From positions 15,522 to 79,521 of the forward strand of contig JAUWYR010000002.1 of the NCBI GenBank assembly GCA_030615745.1: a DNA stretch of 64,000 nucleotides. Reading direction: 5' to 3'. Both the position numbers and the translations under genes were made by a program. Position 1 is the first letter of the stretch. The number at the start of each line of letters is the position of its first letter. The notes beneath the pieces were generated by a model. The model was given only the letters and a program-made list of their open reading frames with translations. It did not search any database and had not been told where the DNA came from. This DNA comes from Candidatus Zixiibacteriota bacterium. Lineage in GTDB: Bacteria > Zixibacteria > MSB-5A5 > SM23-73-2. Positions 12,869-53,451 of the stretch are shown here, piece after piece.

Positions 12869-12924
12869 TGCGTATGCCGAAGGTCAAGAGACATGCATCG
12901 GAGATCAAGAGATACGCATTCTAC
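12869..12924. repeat. 20-bp palindrome (REP-like; GTAG overlaps dnaN stop) interrupted by two 15-nt CAAGAG insertions
   Basis: Removing 12878-12892 and 12898-12912 gives the perfect palindrome TGCGTATGCATGCATACGCA. Confidence 0.85.
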
Positions 12925-18486: not shown

Positions 18487-18854
18487 TGAAATCCGAAGGA
18501 TTCATAGAAAAAGAGGGCTTTCCTAAAGAGATAAGGATTAAAAAGGATTTAGAATTCAAAGAGGTCATAAAAAAAGGGGAAAAGAAAATTGGAGAAAAAT
18601 TAATTTTATTCATACTTAAAAAAGATAACACTTCTTTGAAGTTTGGTATAAGGGTCGACAAAACCATTAAAAAAGCTACGAAAAGAAACAGAATAAAAAG
18701 GATTATAAGGGAGATTCTGAGAAAGAGCAAGGATAAATTTTTACCTGGTGAGAGGGTAGTGATTGTCTATAAATCTTTGGAAGAAAACGTAAAATTAAAA
18801 GAGCTTCAAAAAGATTTCGATAATTTAGTCGGTATCGATCAAGAGATGAGATGA
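18483..18854 (+). CDS. rnpA: RNase P protein component
   Basis: [14 protein letters not shown] (RNR motif); synteny. Confidence 0.92.
18829..18847 (+). repeat. CAAGAG micro-insertion TCGGTATCGATCAAGAGAT in the rnpA C-terminus
   Basis: Identical 19-mer at 19101, 41960 and 51491. Confidence 0.9.
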
Positions 18855-19099: not shown

Positions 19100-19119
19100 A
19101 TCGGTATCGATCAAGAGAT
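19100..19119 (+). repeat. CAAGAG micro-insertion at the yidC start codon
   Basis: AT-CGGTATCG-AT-CAAGAG-AT(G); removal leaves AAAAATGGAC with the ATG intact. Confidence 0.9.
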
Positions 19120-28164: not shown

Positions 28165-28450
28165 TGTCATTGCGAGCGTTAGCGAAGCAATCTCATCAAA
28201 CTCAAAAGATTGCTTCGGGACTTTCGCCCCCCGCAATGACAGGCTAAAATATGCGGAAGCATCAAGAGATAATGTTATTTTGGAAACATTTCACCAGAGC
28301 CATAAAGGATCCCTGGTCGGGCAGGCAATGTGGGTTAAATAAGCCCCACCTTATGGGCAAGGTGGGGATACGATGATATTTTGCGTAGCGGAGGGTTTAT
28401 CCCTCCGATGCAGAGCCATAAAGGCTCCCTGGCCGGACAGGCTGCTACGC
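28165..28450. repeat. Repeat cluster: RPE-like element (28165-28241), CAAGAG insertion (28251-28270), two 15-nt elements (28312-28326, 28428-28442) and GTAG-type REPs
   Basis: GTCATTGCGAG..GAAGCAATCT..AGATTGCTTC..CGCAATGAC; GTAGCGGAGGG-TTTAT-CCCTCCG. Confidence 0.8.
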
Positions 28451-39362: not shown

Positions 39363-41267
39363 ATGAAAAAGCTCTTTTTATTTTTCCTCATTTTATTCTT
39401 TTTATGCACATCTTTTACCTTTTCATACCAATCTCTTGATGCATACGCATATATTCAGTTGAAAATAATGGTGGAGGAGGGTAGTGAAAAAGACTCTTCA
39501 GGTTTTCAGCTTATAGACCAAAGAAAAATGATTTTAAAAGAGGGAAAAGAGAATTTCTGTTTTTTAGGGAATTTCACCCTTTATGTAACTCCGACAATAA
39601 TCGAGGATAAAATCTTTTTATCAGTTGAGCTTTATACCTTGGGACCTCAAGTTCAAAAGATCTCAAAGGAGCTTTTAACATCTTCAGGTGAGCTTTTGGA
39701 ATTTGGTAGGGTGAGGGTCAAAGAAGATAGGGTCTTTCGGGTCTGGATTTCTCCTTCTTTGTGGAATGTAGGAAAAAGAATTGATTGGTGCGACTTTTCA
39801 CCAAAAGATCCGGATGATTTTTATTCTGAGGTGAGTATTCATTATACATTCTATTGTATGAAAAATTCCTTGGCAGATTTTCACTGGCTTAAAAACAAGG
39901 ATTTTTTGGAGAAAGTTTATAAAAAGCACAAGAAATCCTGGATGTTTTCCTACCCTGAGAAAATAGATTATTTTCTTTCCCCCTGTTATCTATCAGGGGT
40001 GGGATGGGATTTTCGGTTCGAAAGCGCTCTGGATCCAGTTAAAAATAGCGTATTTGTTGTCTATAACAAAGAAAAAAAAGGGCTCTTCTCACCTTTTGCA
40101 ATGGAGTTGCTTTATTACAGGTATTGGGGTTATGCTCCGAAGTTTATAGTAGAAGGACTTGCTGGAGAAAGAGATTTAGCTCACTTTTATGCCAAAAAAC
40201 TTAAAAAGAAGAAAAACTTAATTCCTTTAAAAAAGCTTATATTATCAAAAGATTATAGAAGCTATCCGAAAGATTTGGCTTTTTATTCCGCCTCATCCTT
40301 TGTGAGTTTTTTGATTGAGAAATACGGGCAGGGTGAGTTCAAAAAATTTTATAATGAGGTTACTGACCTCACATTGGATGAAGTCCTTTTTTCAATTTAT
40401 AAAAAAAACATTTGCGAATTAGAAGCTGAGTGGCACAATTTTTTGGATGAATACTCTCCTTCTGCCTGGAAACTATTGGAATTCGCAACAACTAAATTAT
40501 CCTATAATGAGTATGACCAGGCAATAGTTCTTTTAAAAGATGCGCTTGAGCATATAAGCGAAGAAGACATTCTCACACCTTTGTATCATCTTACCAATGC
40601 TTATTTTATGGCTGGCAGATACTCAGATGCGAAAGAAAGTGTTAATAAAATGCTTGAGATAAAACCAGAAGAACCAGAGCTATGGAATGCCTTAGGTAAT
40701 AATTATTTTTTTGATGGAGAGGACTCTTTGGCAAAAAAAGCTTTTTTTAAAGCCTTAGAACTCGCTCCTGATTATGGTGATTGTTACTTTAAGTTGGGCA
40801 AAATTTCTCTAAGACAAAAAGATTTTGGGAATGCTATAACTTATTTTTCAGAGGCAGAAAGTTTAGCAGGGAATTTATTGGATTTAATTGAGGTTAATCT
40901 CTGTTTTGGCGAAGTATATGATTTTTTATGCGATGATAGTCTGAAAAACGATAAATACAAAAAAGCCTTAGATTATTCAAAAAGGTTTACTAAAAACGCA
41001 CCGGAAAGTCCTCTTTCTTATCTTAAGATGGGTGAATCCTTTTTAGGATTAGGCGATCTTGGTTCTGCTATAGATTATCTGAATACAGCTTTGTTTTTGG
41101 AGAGAAGACCCAACCTGTTAGGCGAAATCTATTTAGCCTTGGGCAAAGCTTATCAAAAAAAAGGCGATCTGTCTATGGCTAAAACCCTTTACAAAAAAGT
41201 TCTTTACACAACTTCAAACAAAAAAGATTTAGAAGAGGCTAAGAAATCTTTAAAAGATTTGGATTAG
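39363..41267 (+). CDS. Secreted protein with peptidase-MA-like region and C-terminal TPRs
   Basis: Signal peptide; EGLA..FY..SFVSFL; TPR pattern. Confidence 0.75.
   Translation: MKKLFLFFLILFFLCTSFTFSYQSLDAYAYIQLKIMVEEGSEKDSSGFQLIDQRKMILKEGKENFCFLGNFTLYVTPTIIEDKIFLSVELYTLGPQVQKISKELLTSSGELLEFGRVRVKEDRVFRVWISPSLWNVGKRIDWCDFSPKDPDDFYSEVSIHYTFYCMKNSLADFHWLKNKDFLEKVYKKHKKSWMFSYPEKIDYFLSPCYLSGVGWDFRFESALDPVKNSVFVVYNKEKKGLFSPFAMELLYYRYWGYAPKFIVEGLAGERDLAHFYAKKLKKKKNLIPLKKLILSKDYRSYPKDLAFYSASSFVSFLIEKYGQGEFKKFYNEVTDLTLDEVLFSIYKKNICELEAEWHNFLDEYSPSAWKLLEFATTKLSYNEYDQAIVLLKDALEHISEEDILTPLYHLTNAYFMAGRYSDAKESVNKMLEIKPEEPELWNALGNNYFFDGEDSLAKKAFFKALELAPDYGDCYFKLGKISLRQKDFGNAITYFSEAESLAGNLLDLIEVNLCFGEVYDFLCDDSLKNDKYKKALDYSKRFTKNAPESPLSYLKMGESFLGLGDLGSAIDYLNTALFLERRPNLLGEIYLALGKAYQKKGDLSMAKTLYKKVLYTTSNKKDLEEAKKSLKDLD
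39431..39450 (-). repeat. CAAGAG micro-insertion ATGCGTATGCATCAAGAGAT, in frame (SLDAYA)
   Basis: Reverse complement of the unit at 52001-52018. Confidence 0.85.
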
Positions 41268-41274
41268 AGATTAT

Positions 41275-43410
41275 ATGTTAGGTTTTTTAAATCCCTTAAT
41301 TTTACTTGCCACTCCAGCTACATTGATACCGCTTCTTATCCACATATTTAATCGCAGGAGATTAAAGAAGTTAGATTTCAGCTCGATTCAGCTTTTAAAA
41401 TCTTTTGAGAAGACCAAGCTTAAAAGGATAAGATTAAAGGAGCTTCTTCTTCTTTTATTGCGCTGTTTGATAATCTTTTTAGTTGTGATGGCATTTGCTC
41501 GCCCTACCTGGAAAGGTAGCTTAGAGACTTTTGGCTCTTCTGCACAGACATCCGCAGTGATTTTACTCGATAACTCTTTTAGCACAAAATTCGAGACCAA
41601 AGAAGGCAGCATTTTTGAGATTGGCAAAAAAAGGGCAAAAGAACTTTTAACTATTTTTGGAGAAAAAGATGAAATTAGCCTGGTTGTTTTCAACTCTGAG
41701 TTAGAGCTTTTGACCTCTGAGCCGAGTTCAGATATAAAAGCTTTAAAAAACTTGATAAAAGAGGTCTCTTCATCTTTTTTCTCGACTGATATAAAAAAAG
41801 CATTGTCTTTTGCAAAGGAAAGACTGAAAAGCTCAAAGAATCTTAACAAGGAGATATATCTTTTATCAGACCTTCAAAGAGCTGGATGGTTGGGCAAAAA
41901 TTTATCTTCTATCGGTGATGAGAGTATGCGTATGCCGAAGGTCAAGAGACATCAAGAGATCGGTATCGATCAAGAGATAAGGTTATATGTGGTTGGGTTG
42001 TGGGAGGAGAAGAAAAAAAATGTTGGGATAGTCAAAACAGGTTTTGGGGAAGAGTTAATCCTCAAAAACAGGCCCTTCAGGTTAAATGCTAAACTCCGTA
42101 ATTTTTCCCAAGAACCACAAAAAGACCTTTTGGTGGCTTTGTATTTAGATAAAAAAAGGGTGAGTCAGACAGACATTGTTCTTGAGCCTCAAAGCGACTT
42201 TGATTTAGGATTTGTTCAATCGGAGGACGATGTTGGACTGCATCACGGTTTTTTCGAGATAGAGGATGATGAGCTTTTAGTTGATAACAGAAGATATTTT
42301 GTCTTTTATGTTCCTGAAAAAATTAAAGTCTTAATTTTAGGTGAAAATTTAGGTGATAACTATTATCTCAATTTAGCATTAAACCCAACTGAGGAGAAAA
42401 ATTGGCACTTTGAGATCAACTCAACCACCTTGAAATCATTTAAAAAGCCATCATTTTCCGAATATGATGTTGTTATTTTATCCAATGTGAAAAGTTTAAA
42501 CTCAAGTCAATTAAATAACTTAGAGACTTTTATAAAAAGTGGTGGTGGTCTTGTTTTAGGGTTGAATAAAAAAATCGATTTCGAATTTTATAACCAGAAG
42601 ATAATGAGTAAATTTTTTGGCACAAAGATTTCAAAAATTAACTCCTCAAAAAAGAAAGGATTTTTCCCTTTGGGCAAAATAGATTTTGACCATCCTATAT
42701 TTCAGGTATACAAAGATGAAAAGGAAATCCCTATGGTCAAATTCTACTATTATTTCGATTGCCCCGAGAAAAGAGGTTTAAAAGTTTTAGTTAGATTGAG
42801 AAACGAAAAGCCAATTCTTTTGGAGAAAAGCTATGGCTTAGGTAAAATTTTAGTTTTTTTGAGTTCCTTTGACTCAGATGGAAATGATTTAGTCCTGCAC
42901 ACTTTCTTTGTTCCTTTTGTTCATCGCTGTGTTGAATATCTGAGCAAAACTCGGTTCAGTCTGGGATTTGATAAAGATCTTTTAGTGGGAACTAAAATCG
43001 AAAGGGAGCTTGACCCATCCTTTTTTGGAAAAAAGATCAAATTGGTTGAGCCTCAAAAAAAAGAATTTTTTTTAAAACCAGATTTTGTTCAACAAAAATT
43101 GAAAGTGAGAACACCCAAAACCTCTTTGCCAGGGATATATTCTATATTAGCTGATAGCTTAACTGTTGACCGGTTCGCTCTGAATGTGGACCCTTCGGAG
43201 TCCGATTTAGAGGTTTTAAAAGATAAGGAGATAAAAAAGATATTAAAAGGGTGGAACATAATCTTTATAAATCCTCAAGATGACATTTTAGAGAGGATAA
43301 AAAGTTCACGTTACGGAAGGGAGTTGGGAAAAGTTTTTTTGTGGTCAGCCTTTTTCCTTTTGTTTTTGGAGCTTTTTTTATCGAGGACAAAAGGAGAAGA
43401 AAAGTATTAA
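41275..43410 (+). CDS. BatA-domain / vWA protein
   Basis: FLNP..PLLIH..FSS..LRCL..AFARP; LDNSFS; ESDL motifs. Confidence 0.9.
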   Translation: MLGFLNPLILLATPATLIPLLIHIFNRRRLKKLDFSSIQLLKSFEKTKLKRIRLKELLLLLLRCLIIFLVVMAFARPTWKGSLETFGSSAQTSAVILLDNSFSTKFETKEGSIFEIGKKRAKELLTIFGEKDEISLVVFNSELELLTSEPSSDIKALKNLIKEVSSSFFSTDIKKALSFAKERLKSSKNLNKEIYLLSDLQRAGWLGKNLSSIGDESMRMPKVKRHQEIGIDQEIRLYVVGLWEEKKKNVGIVKTGFGEELILKNRPFRLNAKLRNFSQEPQKDLLVALYLDKKRVSQTDIVLEPQSDFDLGFVQSEDDVGLHHGFFEIEDDELLVDNRRYFVFYVPEKIKVLILGENLGDNYYLNLALNPTEEKNWHFEINSTTLKSFKKPSFSEYDVVILSNVKSLNSSQLNNLETFIKSGGGLVLGLNKKIDFEFYNQKIMSKFFGTKISKINSSKKKGFFPLGKIDFDHPIFQVYKDEKEIPMVKFYYYFDCPEKRGLKVLVRLRNEKPILLEKSYGLGKILVFLSSFDSDGNDLVLHTFFVPFVHRCVEYLSKTRFSLGFDKDLLVGTKIERELDPSFFGKKIKLVEPQKKEFFLKPDFVQQKLKVRTPKTSLPGIYSILADSLTVDRFALNVDPSESDLEVLKDKEIKKILKGWNIIFINPQDDILERIKSSRYGRELGKVFLWSAFFLLFLELFLSRTKGEEKY
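41927..41977 (+). repeat. Triple nested/tandem CAAGAG insertion (51 nt, in frame)
   Basis: TGCGTATGC[CGAAGGTCAAGAGAC]ATCAAGAGA + TCGGTATCGATCAAGAGA. Confidence 0.9.
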
Positions 43411-51490: not shown

Positions 51491-51707
51491 TCGGTATCGA
51501 TCAAGAGATTTGTTCTTTTTCTGGTCAAAGCCCCGTTTTTAATCGGGGTTTTTTTATTTTAGATAATACAAAAAATAGGATAAATACCGATAATAAAATG
51601 AAGAGTAAGCAGTAGACAGTAGGCAGATGAGATTTTTGGAGTGTCAAGCTTTAGCTTGACTGGATAGTGGCTCTTGTTAGTGCGGGAAATCCAATTCCCG
51701 CACTAAC
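51491..51707. repeat. CAAGAG insertion (51491-51509), terminator-like hairpin, 7-mers and REP-like palindromes
   Basis: AAGCCCCG..CGGGGTTT+T run; GTCAAGCT-TT-AGCTTGAC; GTTAGTGCGGGAA..TTCCCGCACTAAC. Confidence 0.75.
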
Positions 51708-51735: not shown

Positions 51736-53451
51736 ATGGAAGAGTTAGAGATCAAAAAAGAAAGGCTCGAAAAGGAACAAGAGATAAACGAAGCAAAAAA
51801 GCTTTTGGATTTTTTTCTAAAAGCTTTGAAAAACATAATGATCTATCCTGAGGATAATCCTATCCCTTTTGAATTCAAAAAAGGTCTTTACAAAAAATTC
51901 AAAGATTTTTTAGAAAAAAATGGTGAATTTAAAATTCAGGTCGATTCAACCAATCTTTTATATCAAAATGAAGTGATCTATCATGATCAATCAAAAGATG
52001 TGCGTATGCATCAAGAGAAAAGCATCGCTTTCTTTATATATAGAGATGGTATAAGGGAGATAAAATTTGAGATGGGTCTTCCTGAGAAGGAGTTGAACTC
52101 TTTTTTAGAAATATTAAAATTAGTAGTAAAAAGGCTTGTGCCAGAGGATGATCTGGTAACTTTATTATGGGGCAAAGACTTTAATTTCATAAAATATGAG
52201 GTAGTGGATGAAATTTTAGCTGAGGAGCTTTCTTATTCCACTCAGGTTTTTTCTCAGCCCGACTTCGAGAAGCTATATCACTCCGAGATAGACCTTCCTG
52301 AAACAGAAGAGGAGAAAAAAGTTAAGGGGGAAAAGGTTAAAATCTTTGTAGAAAATATCAAAGCATTTGCAGAAGGAGAAATAACTGATCTTAACAAGCT
52401 TTTAGCTATGGATCAAAAATATCACCCTTTGGAGGCAACCATCTCTGTTTTTATTGAGATTCTGAATCAGGAAGAGCTTCCAGACTTTTATGAAATGGTG
52501 GGTCTGATCGAAAAAGGATTGGATTTGCTTATAGAGACATACGATTTCGCTTCTACTTATAAGATAATTGAGGCGATCAAGCAGGTGGAGCAGAGGTTTT
52601 CAGGGATTTCGAAAGAGAGGTCCGAGAGATTGAAGATTGCAGTAGAAAGGGCAGGTGATAAAAGAAGGATAGAGATTATTGGCGAGATACTTAACCGGGA
52701 AAAGAAAGTTGACCTTTTTTCTGTTCAGGATTATCTTTGTTCCCTTTATTGGAATTCCATCTCAAATTTAATTAATATTTTGGGGGAGTTAAAGACCTTT
52801 TCAGCACGAAAGATGGTTTGTCGAGTATTGGAGAAATTCGGCAGGGAAAATCTCGAGTTGGTGGGAAAGGGAGTATTTGATTCCCGCTGGTATGTTGTGA
52901 GAAATATTTTATGGGTCTTAGGTGAGATTGAAGATAGGAGAGGGGTCGAATTTGTAAATTTTGCCCTAAAACATGAAGATGTCAGGGTTCGCAGGGAAGC
53001 GATCAGGATTTTGGAAAAAATTGGAGATTCTAACTCTGGCACTGCTTTAATTCCTCTTTTGGATTATGATTTTAATAAAATTCGCATAATGGCAGTTAAG
53101 CTTTTAGCCAAATGGAAGGTCAAAGAGGCTATAAAACCTTTGCTGGAGATAGCTGAAAAGAAGGAGTTTCATAATATAGATATTGAGGAGAAAAAGGAGC
53201 TGCTTTTAGCTTTAGCAATAATTGGCCGAGACGAAATAATACCCTTTTTTAGAAAGCTTTTGAGGAAAAGGGCTTTTTTTAATCGGGAAAAAAAGATCGA
53301 AACTAAAATCCTGGCGATAAAAGCCCTGGGAGCATTAAATTTTTTAAAGGCAAAAAATTTATTGACGGAGATTAAAACCAAAAGGAATAAGACCTTAAAG
53401 GAAGCATCAGCTAAGGCCTTAGCAAAATTAGAGTTGCTACCAAAAATTTAG
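51736..53451 (+). CDS. HEAT-repeat protein
   Basis: DSRWYVVRN and DVRVRREAI repeats. Confidence 0.85.
   Translation: MEELEIKKERLEKEQEINEAKKLLDFFLKALKNIMIYPEDNPIPFEFKKGLYKKFKDFLEKNGEFKIQVDSTNLLYQNEVIYHDQSKDVRMHQEKSIAFFIYRDGIREIKFEMGLPEKELNSFLEILKLVVKRLVPEDDLVTLLWGKDFNFIKYEVVDEILAEELSYSTQVFSQPDFEKLYHSEIDLPETEEEKKVKGEKVKIFVENIKAFAEGEITDLNKLLAMDQKYHPLEATISVFIEILNQEELPDFYEMVGLIEKGLDLLIETYDFASTYKIIEAIKQVEQRFSGISKERSERLKIAVERAGDKRRIEIIGEILNREKKVDLFSVQDYLCSLYWNSISNLINILGELKTFSARKMVCRVLEKFGRENLELVGKGVFDSRWYVVRNILWVLGEIEDRRGVEFVNFALKHEDVRVRREAIRILEKIGDSNSGTALIPLLDYDFNKIRIMAVKLLAKWKVKEAIKPLLEIAEKKEFHNIDIEEKKELLLALAIIGRDEIIPFFRKLLRKRAFFNREKKIETKILAIKALGALNFLKAKNLLTEIKTKRNKTLKEASAKALAKLELLPKI
52001..52018 (+). 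repeat. CAAGAG micro-insertion, in frame in the HEAT gene
   Basis: TGCGTATGCATCAAGAGA; removal turns DVRMHQEKS into DES. Confidence 0.8.

Follow-up and report, generated by a model that had tools for sequence, protein, structure and literature searches.

A 51-nt segment was investigated in the gene of a BatA-like protein of Candidatus Zixiibacteriota bacterium (assembly GCA_030615745.1). The gene lies in a 64,000-nt stretch of contig JAUWYR010000002.1 (positions 15,522 to 79,521 of the forward strand), called the window here; coordinates without a contig label refer to it. The segment was best explained as three copies from a single family of non-autonomous micro-elements that is specific to the species, with a probability of about 0.7 for the explanation as a whole, that is, for the family, the mode of insertion and the history of the site together. 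Positions 41927-41977 (51 nt) read TGCGTATGC / CGAAGGTCAAGAGAC / ATCAAGAGA / TCGGTATCGATCAAGAGA, and these letters matched the original prediction, which had been made from the sequence alone, of an 18-nt unit (unit A) that is interrupted by a 15-nt unit (unit B) and has a different 18-nt unit (unit C) behind it. The host gene and the parts of the segment were located as follows.

41275..43410, + strand: host gene, encoding a 711-aa membrane-anchored protein with BatA_N, VWA_2 and ThuA-like domains; reading frame intact
41927..41935, + strand: 5' part of unit A, TGCGTATGC, the hairpin portion of the 18-nt unit TGCGTATGCATCAAGAGA
41936..41950, + strand: unit B, CGAAGGTCAAGAGAC, 15 nt, nested in unit A at ATG^CAT
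41951..41959, + strand: 3' part of unit A, ATCAAGAGA, bearing the family tag
41960..41977, + strand: unit C, TCGGTATCGATCAAGAGA, 18 nt, with a TCG/CGA stem, a GTAT loop and the tag

The boundary of unit B was ambiguous by one base, since it could be read as CGAAGGTCAAGAGAC after ..GC or as CCGAAGGTCAAGAGA (41935-41949) after ..TG. In the shifted reading, unit B was a CC-GAA-GG mini-hairpin followed by TCAAGAGA; this reading was adopted because unit B then ends in TCAAGAGA like all other units. The search of the genome (2.28 Mb, 74 contigs) found 42 exact copies of the intact 18-mer A, 30 of the 15-mer B, and 20 of the 18-mer C. In the window, the 15-mer B was found twice (0.06 expected) and TCAAGAGA 16 times (5.3 expected), and each of these counts was reached in 0/100 shuffles. 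With copy numbers far above both expectation and the shuffles, the repeats were not considered to be chance matches.

The 51-nt insert was in frame and encoded residues 218-234, MRMPKVKRHQEIGIDQE, in the context ...GDES-MRMPKVKRHQEIGIDQE-IRLY.... Full-length orthologues of the 711-aa protein were present in all 30 relatives searched (31/31 counting the own genome). In the alignment, the 17 residues were missing from 11/11 best genome orthologues (same genus, family, and order) and from 4/4 database homologues, one of which was identical in this stretch to the orthologue of the congener. The original prediction held that 17 residues had been added to the protein and named an equivalent segment in orthologues as the finding that would speak against it; no counterpart was present in the 15/15 relatives examined. 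Removal of exactly 51 nt from the DNA left GGT GAT GAG AGT A|TA AGG TTA (GDESIRL), colinear with AAA GAC CAG AAT GTG AGG CTT (KDQNVRL) of the congener, and the protein across the site then read GDES|IRLY against KDQNVRLY. This colinearity indicated that no target duplication had occurred at the BatA-like site.

Three genomes were used for further comparison, namely the own genome (G000), the same-genus congener (G001), and a same-family genome (G002). Six further long conserved genes carried 11 units, and 10/11 of these corresponded to gaps of 5-12 residues in both G001 and G002; the remaining unit (1/11) lay where conservation was poor, and there a gap of equal size was displaced by a few residues. 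These comparisons supported the reading of the 51-nt segment as an insertion.

Domain analysis of the 711-aa protein identified PF07584 (E=9e-18), PF13519 (E=5e-10), and PF06283 (E=5e-9). The BatA N-terminal domain (PF07584), by which BatA-domain proteins are recognized, covered residues 1-77 at 64.9 bits (cut-off 25.9). The earlier label of a BatA protein was correct for the N-terminal domain and loose in its wording for a protein that has VWA and ThuA-like domains too. In the AlphaFold2 model (12 sequences, mean predicted local distance difference test score [pLDDT] 71.6), residues 214-232 had a pLDDT below 50 and were mainly coil, with one three-residue helical turn at about 216-218. The insert region was flanked by strands 191-197 (the last of the VWA domain) and 235-240 (the first of the next beta domain). 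What had been anticipated as a protein loop was modelled as a linker of pLDDT <50, mainly coil, and the insert position is predicted to be a disordered inter-domain linker in which added residues should be tolerated.

When all 345 TCAAGAGA sites of the genome were sorted by upstream sequence, a single architecture was found, a mini-hairpin followed by TCAAGAGA. The 18-nt units had the form T-NN-GNAN-N'N'-A plus tag, the 15-nt units consisted of a 2-bp stem with a GNA triloop (CCGAAGG, TCGAAGA, TCGGAGA) plus tag, and the 17-nt form had a 3-bp stem with a triloop (TCCGAAGGA). A hairpin with a stem of at least 3 bp directly preceded TCAAGAGA at 145/345 sites, compared with 0-10% for seven control octamers. 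Both inner stem pairs were Watson-Crick in 121/126 matches to the pattern TNNGNANNNATCAAGAGA, with six stem types (GC/GC 75, CG/CG 32, CC/GG 10, CA/TG 2, AC/GT 1, GG/CC 1), and a seventh stem type, TC/GA, was found in the congener. The putative stems covary around an invariant tag, and the claim of a hairpin was based on this covariation and not on energy, because the predicted stability was marginal. In total, 181 units (15-18 nt) were counted in the own genome; they were dispersed, high in copy number, and without coding capacity.

The pattern TNNGNANNNATCAAGAGA had 126 matches in the own genome and 5 in the congener G001, while 29 other relatives had 0-2 matches without complementary stems, and the reversed control of the pattern had 0-2 matches. 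For the TGC-stem pattern, there were 78 matches in the own genome versus 1 in the congener and 0-2 in the other relatives. Among the five pattern matches of G001, four were family-like, a tandem pair among them. The exact A 18-mer gave six single matches in 185,579 species genomes (own record excluded), one of which was G001. A stem variant absent from the own genome, TTC/GAA, was observed in the congener (G001 C5:844-879, C57:25662-25679, C78:6279-6296); one occurrence was a perfect tandem pair, and another was an in-frame unit at a gene's 3' end. Since the units of G001 sit at sites that are empty in the own genome, the family is older than the species split, was active in both species, and expanded strongly here.

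For 20/181 units, a paralogous empty copy of the joined left and right flanks was found, a number that includes some nested or tandem cases with trivial matches; within larger repeats, the empty copy was exactly both flanks joined, with no duplication. The eight known empty sites (the BatA-like site, five paralogous repeat sites, and two inside unit A) were CATC^TTGA, GATG^CTTC, ATAA^TATG, CATG^TTCG, AAAA^TGAA, AGTA^TAAG, TATG^CATC, and TATG^CCGA. Their consensus was approximately A-T-N^Y, with A at -3 in 5/8, T at -2 in 6/8, and a pyrimidine at +1 in 8/8. The flanks of 114 deduplicated 18-mers had A/T at -3 in 104, T at -2 in 75, T at +1 in 84, and G at +4 in 72, which gave the asymmetric consensus (A/T)TN^T(A/T)NG. 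The asymmetric flanks, together with the exact empty sites, showed that the units are pasted in one orientation relative to a weak target (~A/T-T-N ^ Y), with no target-site duplication. At C56:10246 (-) of G000, a B-like unit (CCTCAAGG plus tag) was reversed at TATG^CAT in a different hairpin repeat (GGCTGGATG...CATCCAGCC, five copies), so ATG^CAT can be hit in either orientation.

Stop-to-stop open reading frames (ORFs) of at least 120 codons made up 85.6% of the genome and contained 91/121 of the 18-nt units, 29/49 of the 15-nt units, and 2/11 of the 17-nt units. The units occupied all five stop-free reading frames. With lengths of 15 or 18 nt and 5/6 frames open, the common units survive in genes as 5-6 extra residues. 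Units were also found in noncoding DNA, in both orientations. One 852-codon gene (G000 C9:60805-63360) carried three units (two antisense, one sense), two of which were clean 6-residue gaps in the orthologues.

Unit B was found only in nested positions: all 31 units of the CCGAAGG type and 3 CTCAAGG variants were inside other repeats, and 0 were in unique DNA. Unit B stood at G^C(A/T)T itself or immediately followed a further unit inserted there, and 18-mers also entered the ATG^C site within other units. The copies of unit B had the following hosts.

Host TGCGTATG^CATCAAGAGA: 13 copies
Host TGCGGACG^: 3 copies
Host TGCGGAAG^: 1 copy
Host TGCGAATG^: 1 copy
Host TACGTATG^: 1 copy
At this site but preceded by a further unit, with stacks like TGCGTATG / 18-mer / B / CATCAAGAGA: 4 copies
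In a truncated unit A: 1 copy
At 12877, in a host without the tail of unit A: 1 copy
In an unrelated repeat at GATG^CTT: 6 copies

The ratios of B-bearing to plain copies for the five hairpin variants were 13/42, 3/12, 1/12, 1/8, and 1/0. Occupancy by unit B therefore roughly tracked the abundance of the variants, which is hard to obtain from one clonally spreading composite. Units with a TCG or TCC stem bore unit B in 0/33 cases. A second locus with unit B was present in the window.

12869..12912, + strand: second B locus, with unit B at 12877-12891 after TGCGTATG and before CAT; the host is not a standard unit A
12898..12912, + strand: 15-nt unit TCGGAGATCAAGAGA

The 26-nt identity claimed for this locus was exact (12869-12894 = 41927-41952). 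From it, the original prediction had derived two possibilities, that unit B hits the same position independently or that composites move as units. No ATCAAGAGA tail was present at 12869, so the host was not the same unit A and the shared 26 nt was not a moved composite; the letters of the locus fit a 20-nt perfect palindrome with two insertions, and this palindrome was found nowhere else in the genome. Between the two possibilities, the evidence favours stepwise site-specific stacking over composite transfer, as unit B occurred in five hairpin variants, in an unrelated repeat, in a non-A host at 12869, and never in unique DNA, and as contigs from three other metagenome studies cross the BatA-like site 15 letters short and otherwise unchanged between 41914 and 42040, with a fourth run joining the left flank to the beginning of unit C. 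The movement of composites lost the match at 12869 as its example, whereas 13 identical GTAT composites were compatible with a 33-nt transfer. In the region of C12:21149 (G000), a composite without the CATCAAGAGA tail was observed, in which TGCGTATG and unit B were followed by unique DNA; the missing tail would result from deletion between two TCAAGAGA direct repeats.

Alleles of the site were investigated in public sequencing runs. Part of a 901-nt stretch was held by 20 runs, 14 of which held 20-46% of its words, as strain relatives would; run X1, the likely source, held 1.00 of 94 sampled 31-letter words. The contigs of four runs from four studies were compared (k=31 contigs, for which lengths, gaps, and loose ends were used, and no sequence). 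Record 10 of run X2 had 618 letters over 41707-42335 with 15 missing, and its 15 substitutions were all outside 41914-42040. Record 18 of run X3 covered 41817-42174 with a 15-letter gap, and record 31 of run X4 had 127 letters over 41836-41977, equal to 91 letters of flank plus 36. Record 4 of run X10 followed the flank to 41927 and then had the loose end CGGTATCGA, so that T+CGGTATCGA, with which unit C begins, stood right behind the left flank. Intermediate alleles, which had been expected if the segment grew stepwise, were thus represented by three runs that bridge the site with 15 nt fewer and by run X10, in which unit C begins right at the left flank. Read most simply, these alleles form a series of C alone (at least with no A at the junction), A+C, and A(B)+C, with empty outgroups. 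Slippage between two TCAAGAGA copies would remove 10 nt and is therefore not the expected source of the 15-nt difference (1-nt junction homology). Scans of metagenome contigs with the left flank and the right flank gave 0 matches, and the homologue search with residues 150-300 gave four proteins, none above 71% identity and none of them strain variants.

In the history that we propose, the disordered linker that connects the VWA domain to the following beta domain would first have received unit C, at ..GAGAGTA^TAAGG... Unit A would have followed at the same left junction, 5' of unit C, at ..GTA^T.., and unit B, which is confined to other repeats and whose site in TGC-stem hairpins is the G^C(A/T)T of their 3' arm, would have come last, into unit A; the net gain would be +6, +6, and +5 residues. 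We infer this order, and the shorter alleles may be either earlier stages or products of precise excision; re-use of the left junction, tandem arrays, and nesting all occur in the family. Insertion would depend on an enzyme that acts in trans and recognises the hairpin together with the tag, probably in single-stranded DNA. By analogy, this protein might use HUH/Y1-type chemistry, like that of IS200/IS605 insertion sequences (IS) or of the transposases associated with repetitive extragenic palindromic (REP) elements (REP-associated tyrosine transposases, RAYTs). This guess, which is doubtful, was made because nothing is duplicated on insertion, the target is oriented and its left flank conserved, the 3' end beside the hairpin is conserved, and tandem stacks form at a re-used left junction. 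Taken further, the family may be an active self-targeting system of 15-18-nt units moved in trans, in which unit B is an obligate hyper-parasite and repeated hits on the same junctions make protein loops grow in 5-6-codon steps, with intermediates still segregating in nature; we put this forward tentatively, as somewhat under an even chance.

Several observations weigh against the proposed history and its enzyme. The predicted free-DNA stability was about -1.5 kcal/mol for 3-bp stems, and the triloop formed no fold (nearest-neighbour folding). IS200/IS605 elements have a hairpin at each end, whereas the Zixibacteria units have one hairpin. No TCAAGAGA unit was within 500 nt of the three Y1_Tnp genes of the own genome, and Y1_Tnp genes were present in 31/31 genomes (own included), while expansion was found only in the own genome; this distribution and these flanks neither supported nor refuted a link to Y1 or RAYT enzymes. 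Noncoding units had no orientation bias relative to local GC skew (21 vs 23), in a weak test, as skew tracks gene direction here. For the strain alleles, the gap position inside 41836-41977 was inferred, and run X10 extended only 9 letters past the flank. The 15-nt change may be either a gain or a precise loss, and 13 identical TGCGTATG-B-CATCAAGAGA composites had unrelated flanks. These last two points, together with a 33-letter composite contig at high depth in run X2 (record 14), would also fit a history of two events, in which the 33-nt A(B) composite is itself mobile and arrived whole beside unit C, and the 36-nt alleles come from precise excision of unit B. We consider that history unlikely, as unit B was also found in four other hairpin variants (GGAC 3, GGAA 1, GAAT 1, TACGTATG 1), in a different repeat at GATG^CTT (6 copies), and in the non-A host at 12877, and as a precise 15-nt loss at a junction with 1-nt homology still needs a site-specific activity on unit B.

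The main rival that involves no transposition is templated copying, in which repair or replication polymerases would switch template to dispersed copies (microhomology-primed templated insertion or short-patch conversion) and the change from A to A(B) would be templated by another composite. The primary insertions in unique DNA, with at most 1-2 nt shared at the junctions, are at odds with it, as are the stem covariation and invariant tag, which point to selection on a structure recognised in trans, and the expansion in one species although repair polymerases are universal. Templated copying would account for the lack of target duplication, for the restriction of unit B to places at which the 8-9 nt on either side agree with other copies, for the tandem arrays (C34 40205-40258; the tandem pair in G001), and for the resemblance of the downstream flank T-N-N-G to the start of a unit, and no dedicated enzyme was found among the Y1 genes and flanks examined; on balance it seems quite improbable. 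A separate explanation, that the protein has the 17 residues from an ancestor or as a selected functional segment, or that they are an artefact of metagenome assembly, is highly implausible. A repeat shorter than a read and yet present in many copies makes mis-threading of the assembly graph conceivable, and all sampled words of the stretch were found only in the likely source run; that run, however, held them at 1.00 of 94, and the other runs had ordered sub-stacks, not noise. The segment was missing from 15/15 relatives, the same units occurred in noncoding DNA and in both orientations, and the insert is predicted to be disordered.

Beside the insert and the second B locus, the window contained further units of the family.

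18829..18846, + strand: copy of unit C
19101..19118, + strand: copy of unit C
28252..28269, + strand: variant of unit A with a GGAA loop, within a larger repeat that occurs five times in the genome
28494..28511, - strand: unit with a TGG/CCA stem (TGGGTACCCATCAAGAGA)
39432..39449, - strand: intact unit A, in the TPR-protein gene 39363..41267
51491..51508, + strand: copy of unit C
52001..52018, + strand: intact unit A, in a 579-codon ORF, read as VRMHQEK

The TPR-protein gene lies just upstream of the BatA-like gene, and its intact antisense unit A (39432-39449) was read as SLDAYA directly after the N-terminal hydrophobic stretch (translation ...SYQSLDAYAYIQ...). As each of the two genes carries units, two adjacent genes of the bat-like cluster were both hit.

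Three candidates for a carrier or parent element were rejected. In the IMG/VR database, the A 18-mer had one match, in an unrelated context and with no other family feature, and the 25-mer of unit B and tail had no match; the sole match was read as chance and a carrier virus was discarded. A longer autonomous element bounded by TGCGTATGC ... ATCAAGAGA was discarded as well, since A, A(B), and a handful of further short repeats accounted for nearly all 71 copies of TGCGTATGC. At contig ends beside TCAAGAGA, an IS-like element was identified as an IS256-family (Transposase_mut) element that merely bears a 17-nt unit. This multi-copy element (Transposase_mut, E=5e-12, C-terminal part) had the 17-nt unit TCCGAAGGATCAAGAGA inside the transposase region. 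It was found in G000 at C9:1-600, C11:1-150, the end of C32, the start of C33, the end of C54, and C35:11200-11450, and several contigs terminate in it; C35 has an additional segment of about 80 nt between two copies of the 17-nt unit. Small repeats with no relation to the TCAAGAGA family were also abundant, namely GCCTGCCCGGCCAGGG (about 89 copies), CTCGCAATGACA (56), GGATGATAACATC (54), and GCTTTACACTCCA (42).

Small dispersed repeats (SDRs) of 21-27 nt were reportedly described in heterocyst-forming cyanobacteria by Elhai et al. in 2008 (Genome Res 18:1484). Like the SDRs, as these are said to be, the Zixibacteria units are very short dispersed units far below the size of MITEs (transposable elements of the miniature inverted-repeat type), with stem-loop potential, nesting, no encoded protein, and no identified mobilising enzyme; dispersal in high copy at less than about 30 nt and nesting at a fixed position were both found. 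Unlike what is reported of SDRs, the units are 15-18 nt long, combine a covarying 2-3-bp mini-hairpin with an invariant 8-nt 3' tag, have a unit B confined to other repeats, and show strain-level intermediate alleles inside a gene; they are also from a different phylum. A passage of PMC2884548 cites SDRs as 'some 20 bp long ... which might be mobile', and SDRs of cyanobacteria are also cited in passages of PMC3116915 and PMC3733652.

With the Rickettsia palindromic elements (RPEs), the units share a selfish, palindromic character, in-frame entry into many unrelated protein genes, conserved ones included, and the addition of fold-compatible peptide segments. The RPEs are about 100-150 bp long with long palindromic arms, neither of which was found here, whereas the Zixibacteria units are 15-18 nt long with 2-3-bp stems, are nested and stacked, and belong to another taxon. 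Ogata et al. are said to have described RPEs in 2000. They are also mentioned in part of a MITE review (PMC10969869). MITEs have terminal inverted repeats, a target-site duplication, and a length of 70-300 bp, and the units, at 15-18 nt and with no target-site duplication, did not resemble them.

Tagged REP elements and their RAYT (Y1) transposases (Di Nocera et al. 2013, PMC3733652; Bertels & Rainey 2011, PMC3116915) resemble the family in the conserved unpaired tag beside a hairpin, the high-copy dispersal, the occasional position in genes, and the presence of Y1 genes in the genome. In passages of these papers, REPs are 20-40 nt long, have a tag (GTAG or CGTC) and long stems rich in GC, are mostly intergenic, and flank their own RAYT gene. 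In contrast, the tag TCAAGAGA of the Zixibacteria units is on the 3' side, 75% of the 18-mers were in ORFs, and 0/3 Y1 genes were flanked by units; neither a 20-40-nt palindrome with a GTAG/CGTC tag nor a RAYT gene flanked by its own repeats of this family was found. The Y1_Tnp ORFs of the own genome (RAYT-like, 176-190 aa) were located at G000 C17:32268-32531(-), C25:17668-17913(+), and C65:20014-20343(+), and each was bracketed by its own hairpin or inverted-repeat pair, different at each of the three loci. The single-strand 'peel and paste' transposition of IS200/IS605 has reportedly been described by Ton-Hoang, Barabas, Chandler, and Dyda; it is said to share with the units the lack of target duplication, oriented insertion beside a conserved re-usable left-flank word, and a hairpin near a conserved 3' end. 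No duplication and an oriented flank word were indeed found for the units, whereas neither a hairpin at each end nor a Y1 gene linked to the units or cognate with them was found; with 15-18 nt in total and no linked tnpA, the likeness is functional and not one of membership.

No report of Zixibacteria palindromic repeats or of nested short in-frame hairpin repeats was found in the literature searched. The known kind to which the units belong is that of very small nesting repeats (SDRs) and in-frame palindromic elements (RPEs). New are the size of 15-18 nt, the hairpin-and-tag module with covarying stems, the member restricted to the hairpins of other members, the phylum, and above all the intermediate alleles in a conserved gene.

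Insertions and deletions in protein loops are usually anonymous. Here, their source is a set of 5-6-codon DNA blocks that enter cleanly, stack on themselves, and are polymorphic between near-identical strains, and the stepwise growth of a disordered protein segment becomes observable in the wild. The lower size for mobile-like DNA is brought to about 15 nt, with a 2-3-bp hairpin and an 8-nt tag, which poses the biochemical question of which protein recognises so small a substrate and finds ATG^C inside another copy. For annotation, the units make genes look more diverged than they are, provide ATG codons, and break up assemblies.

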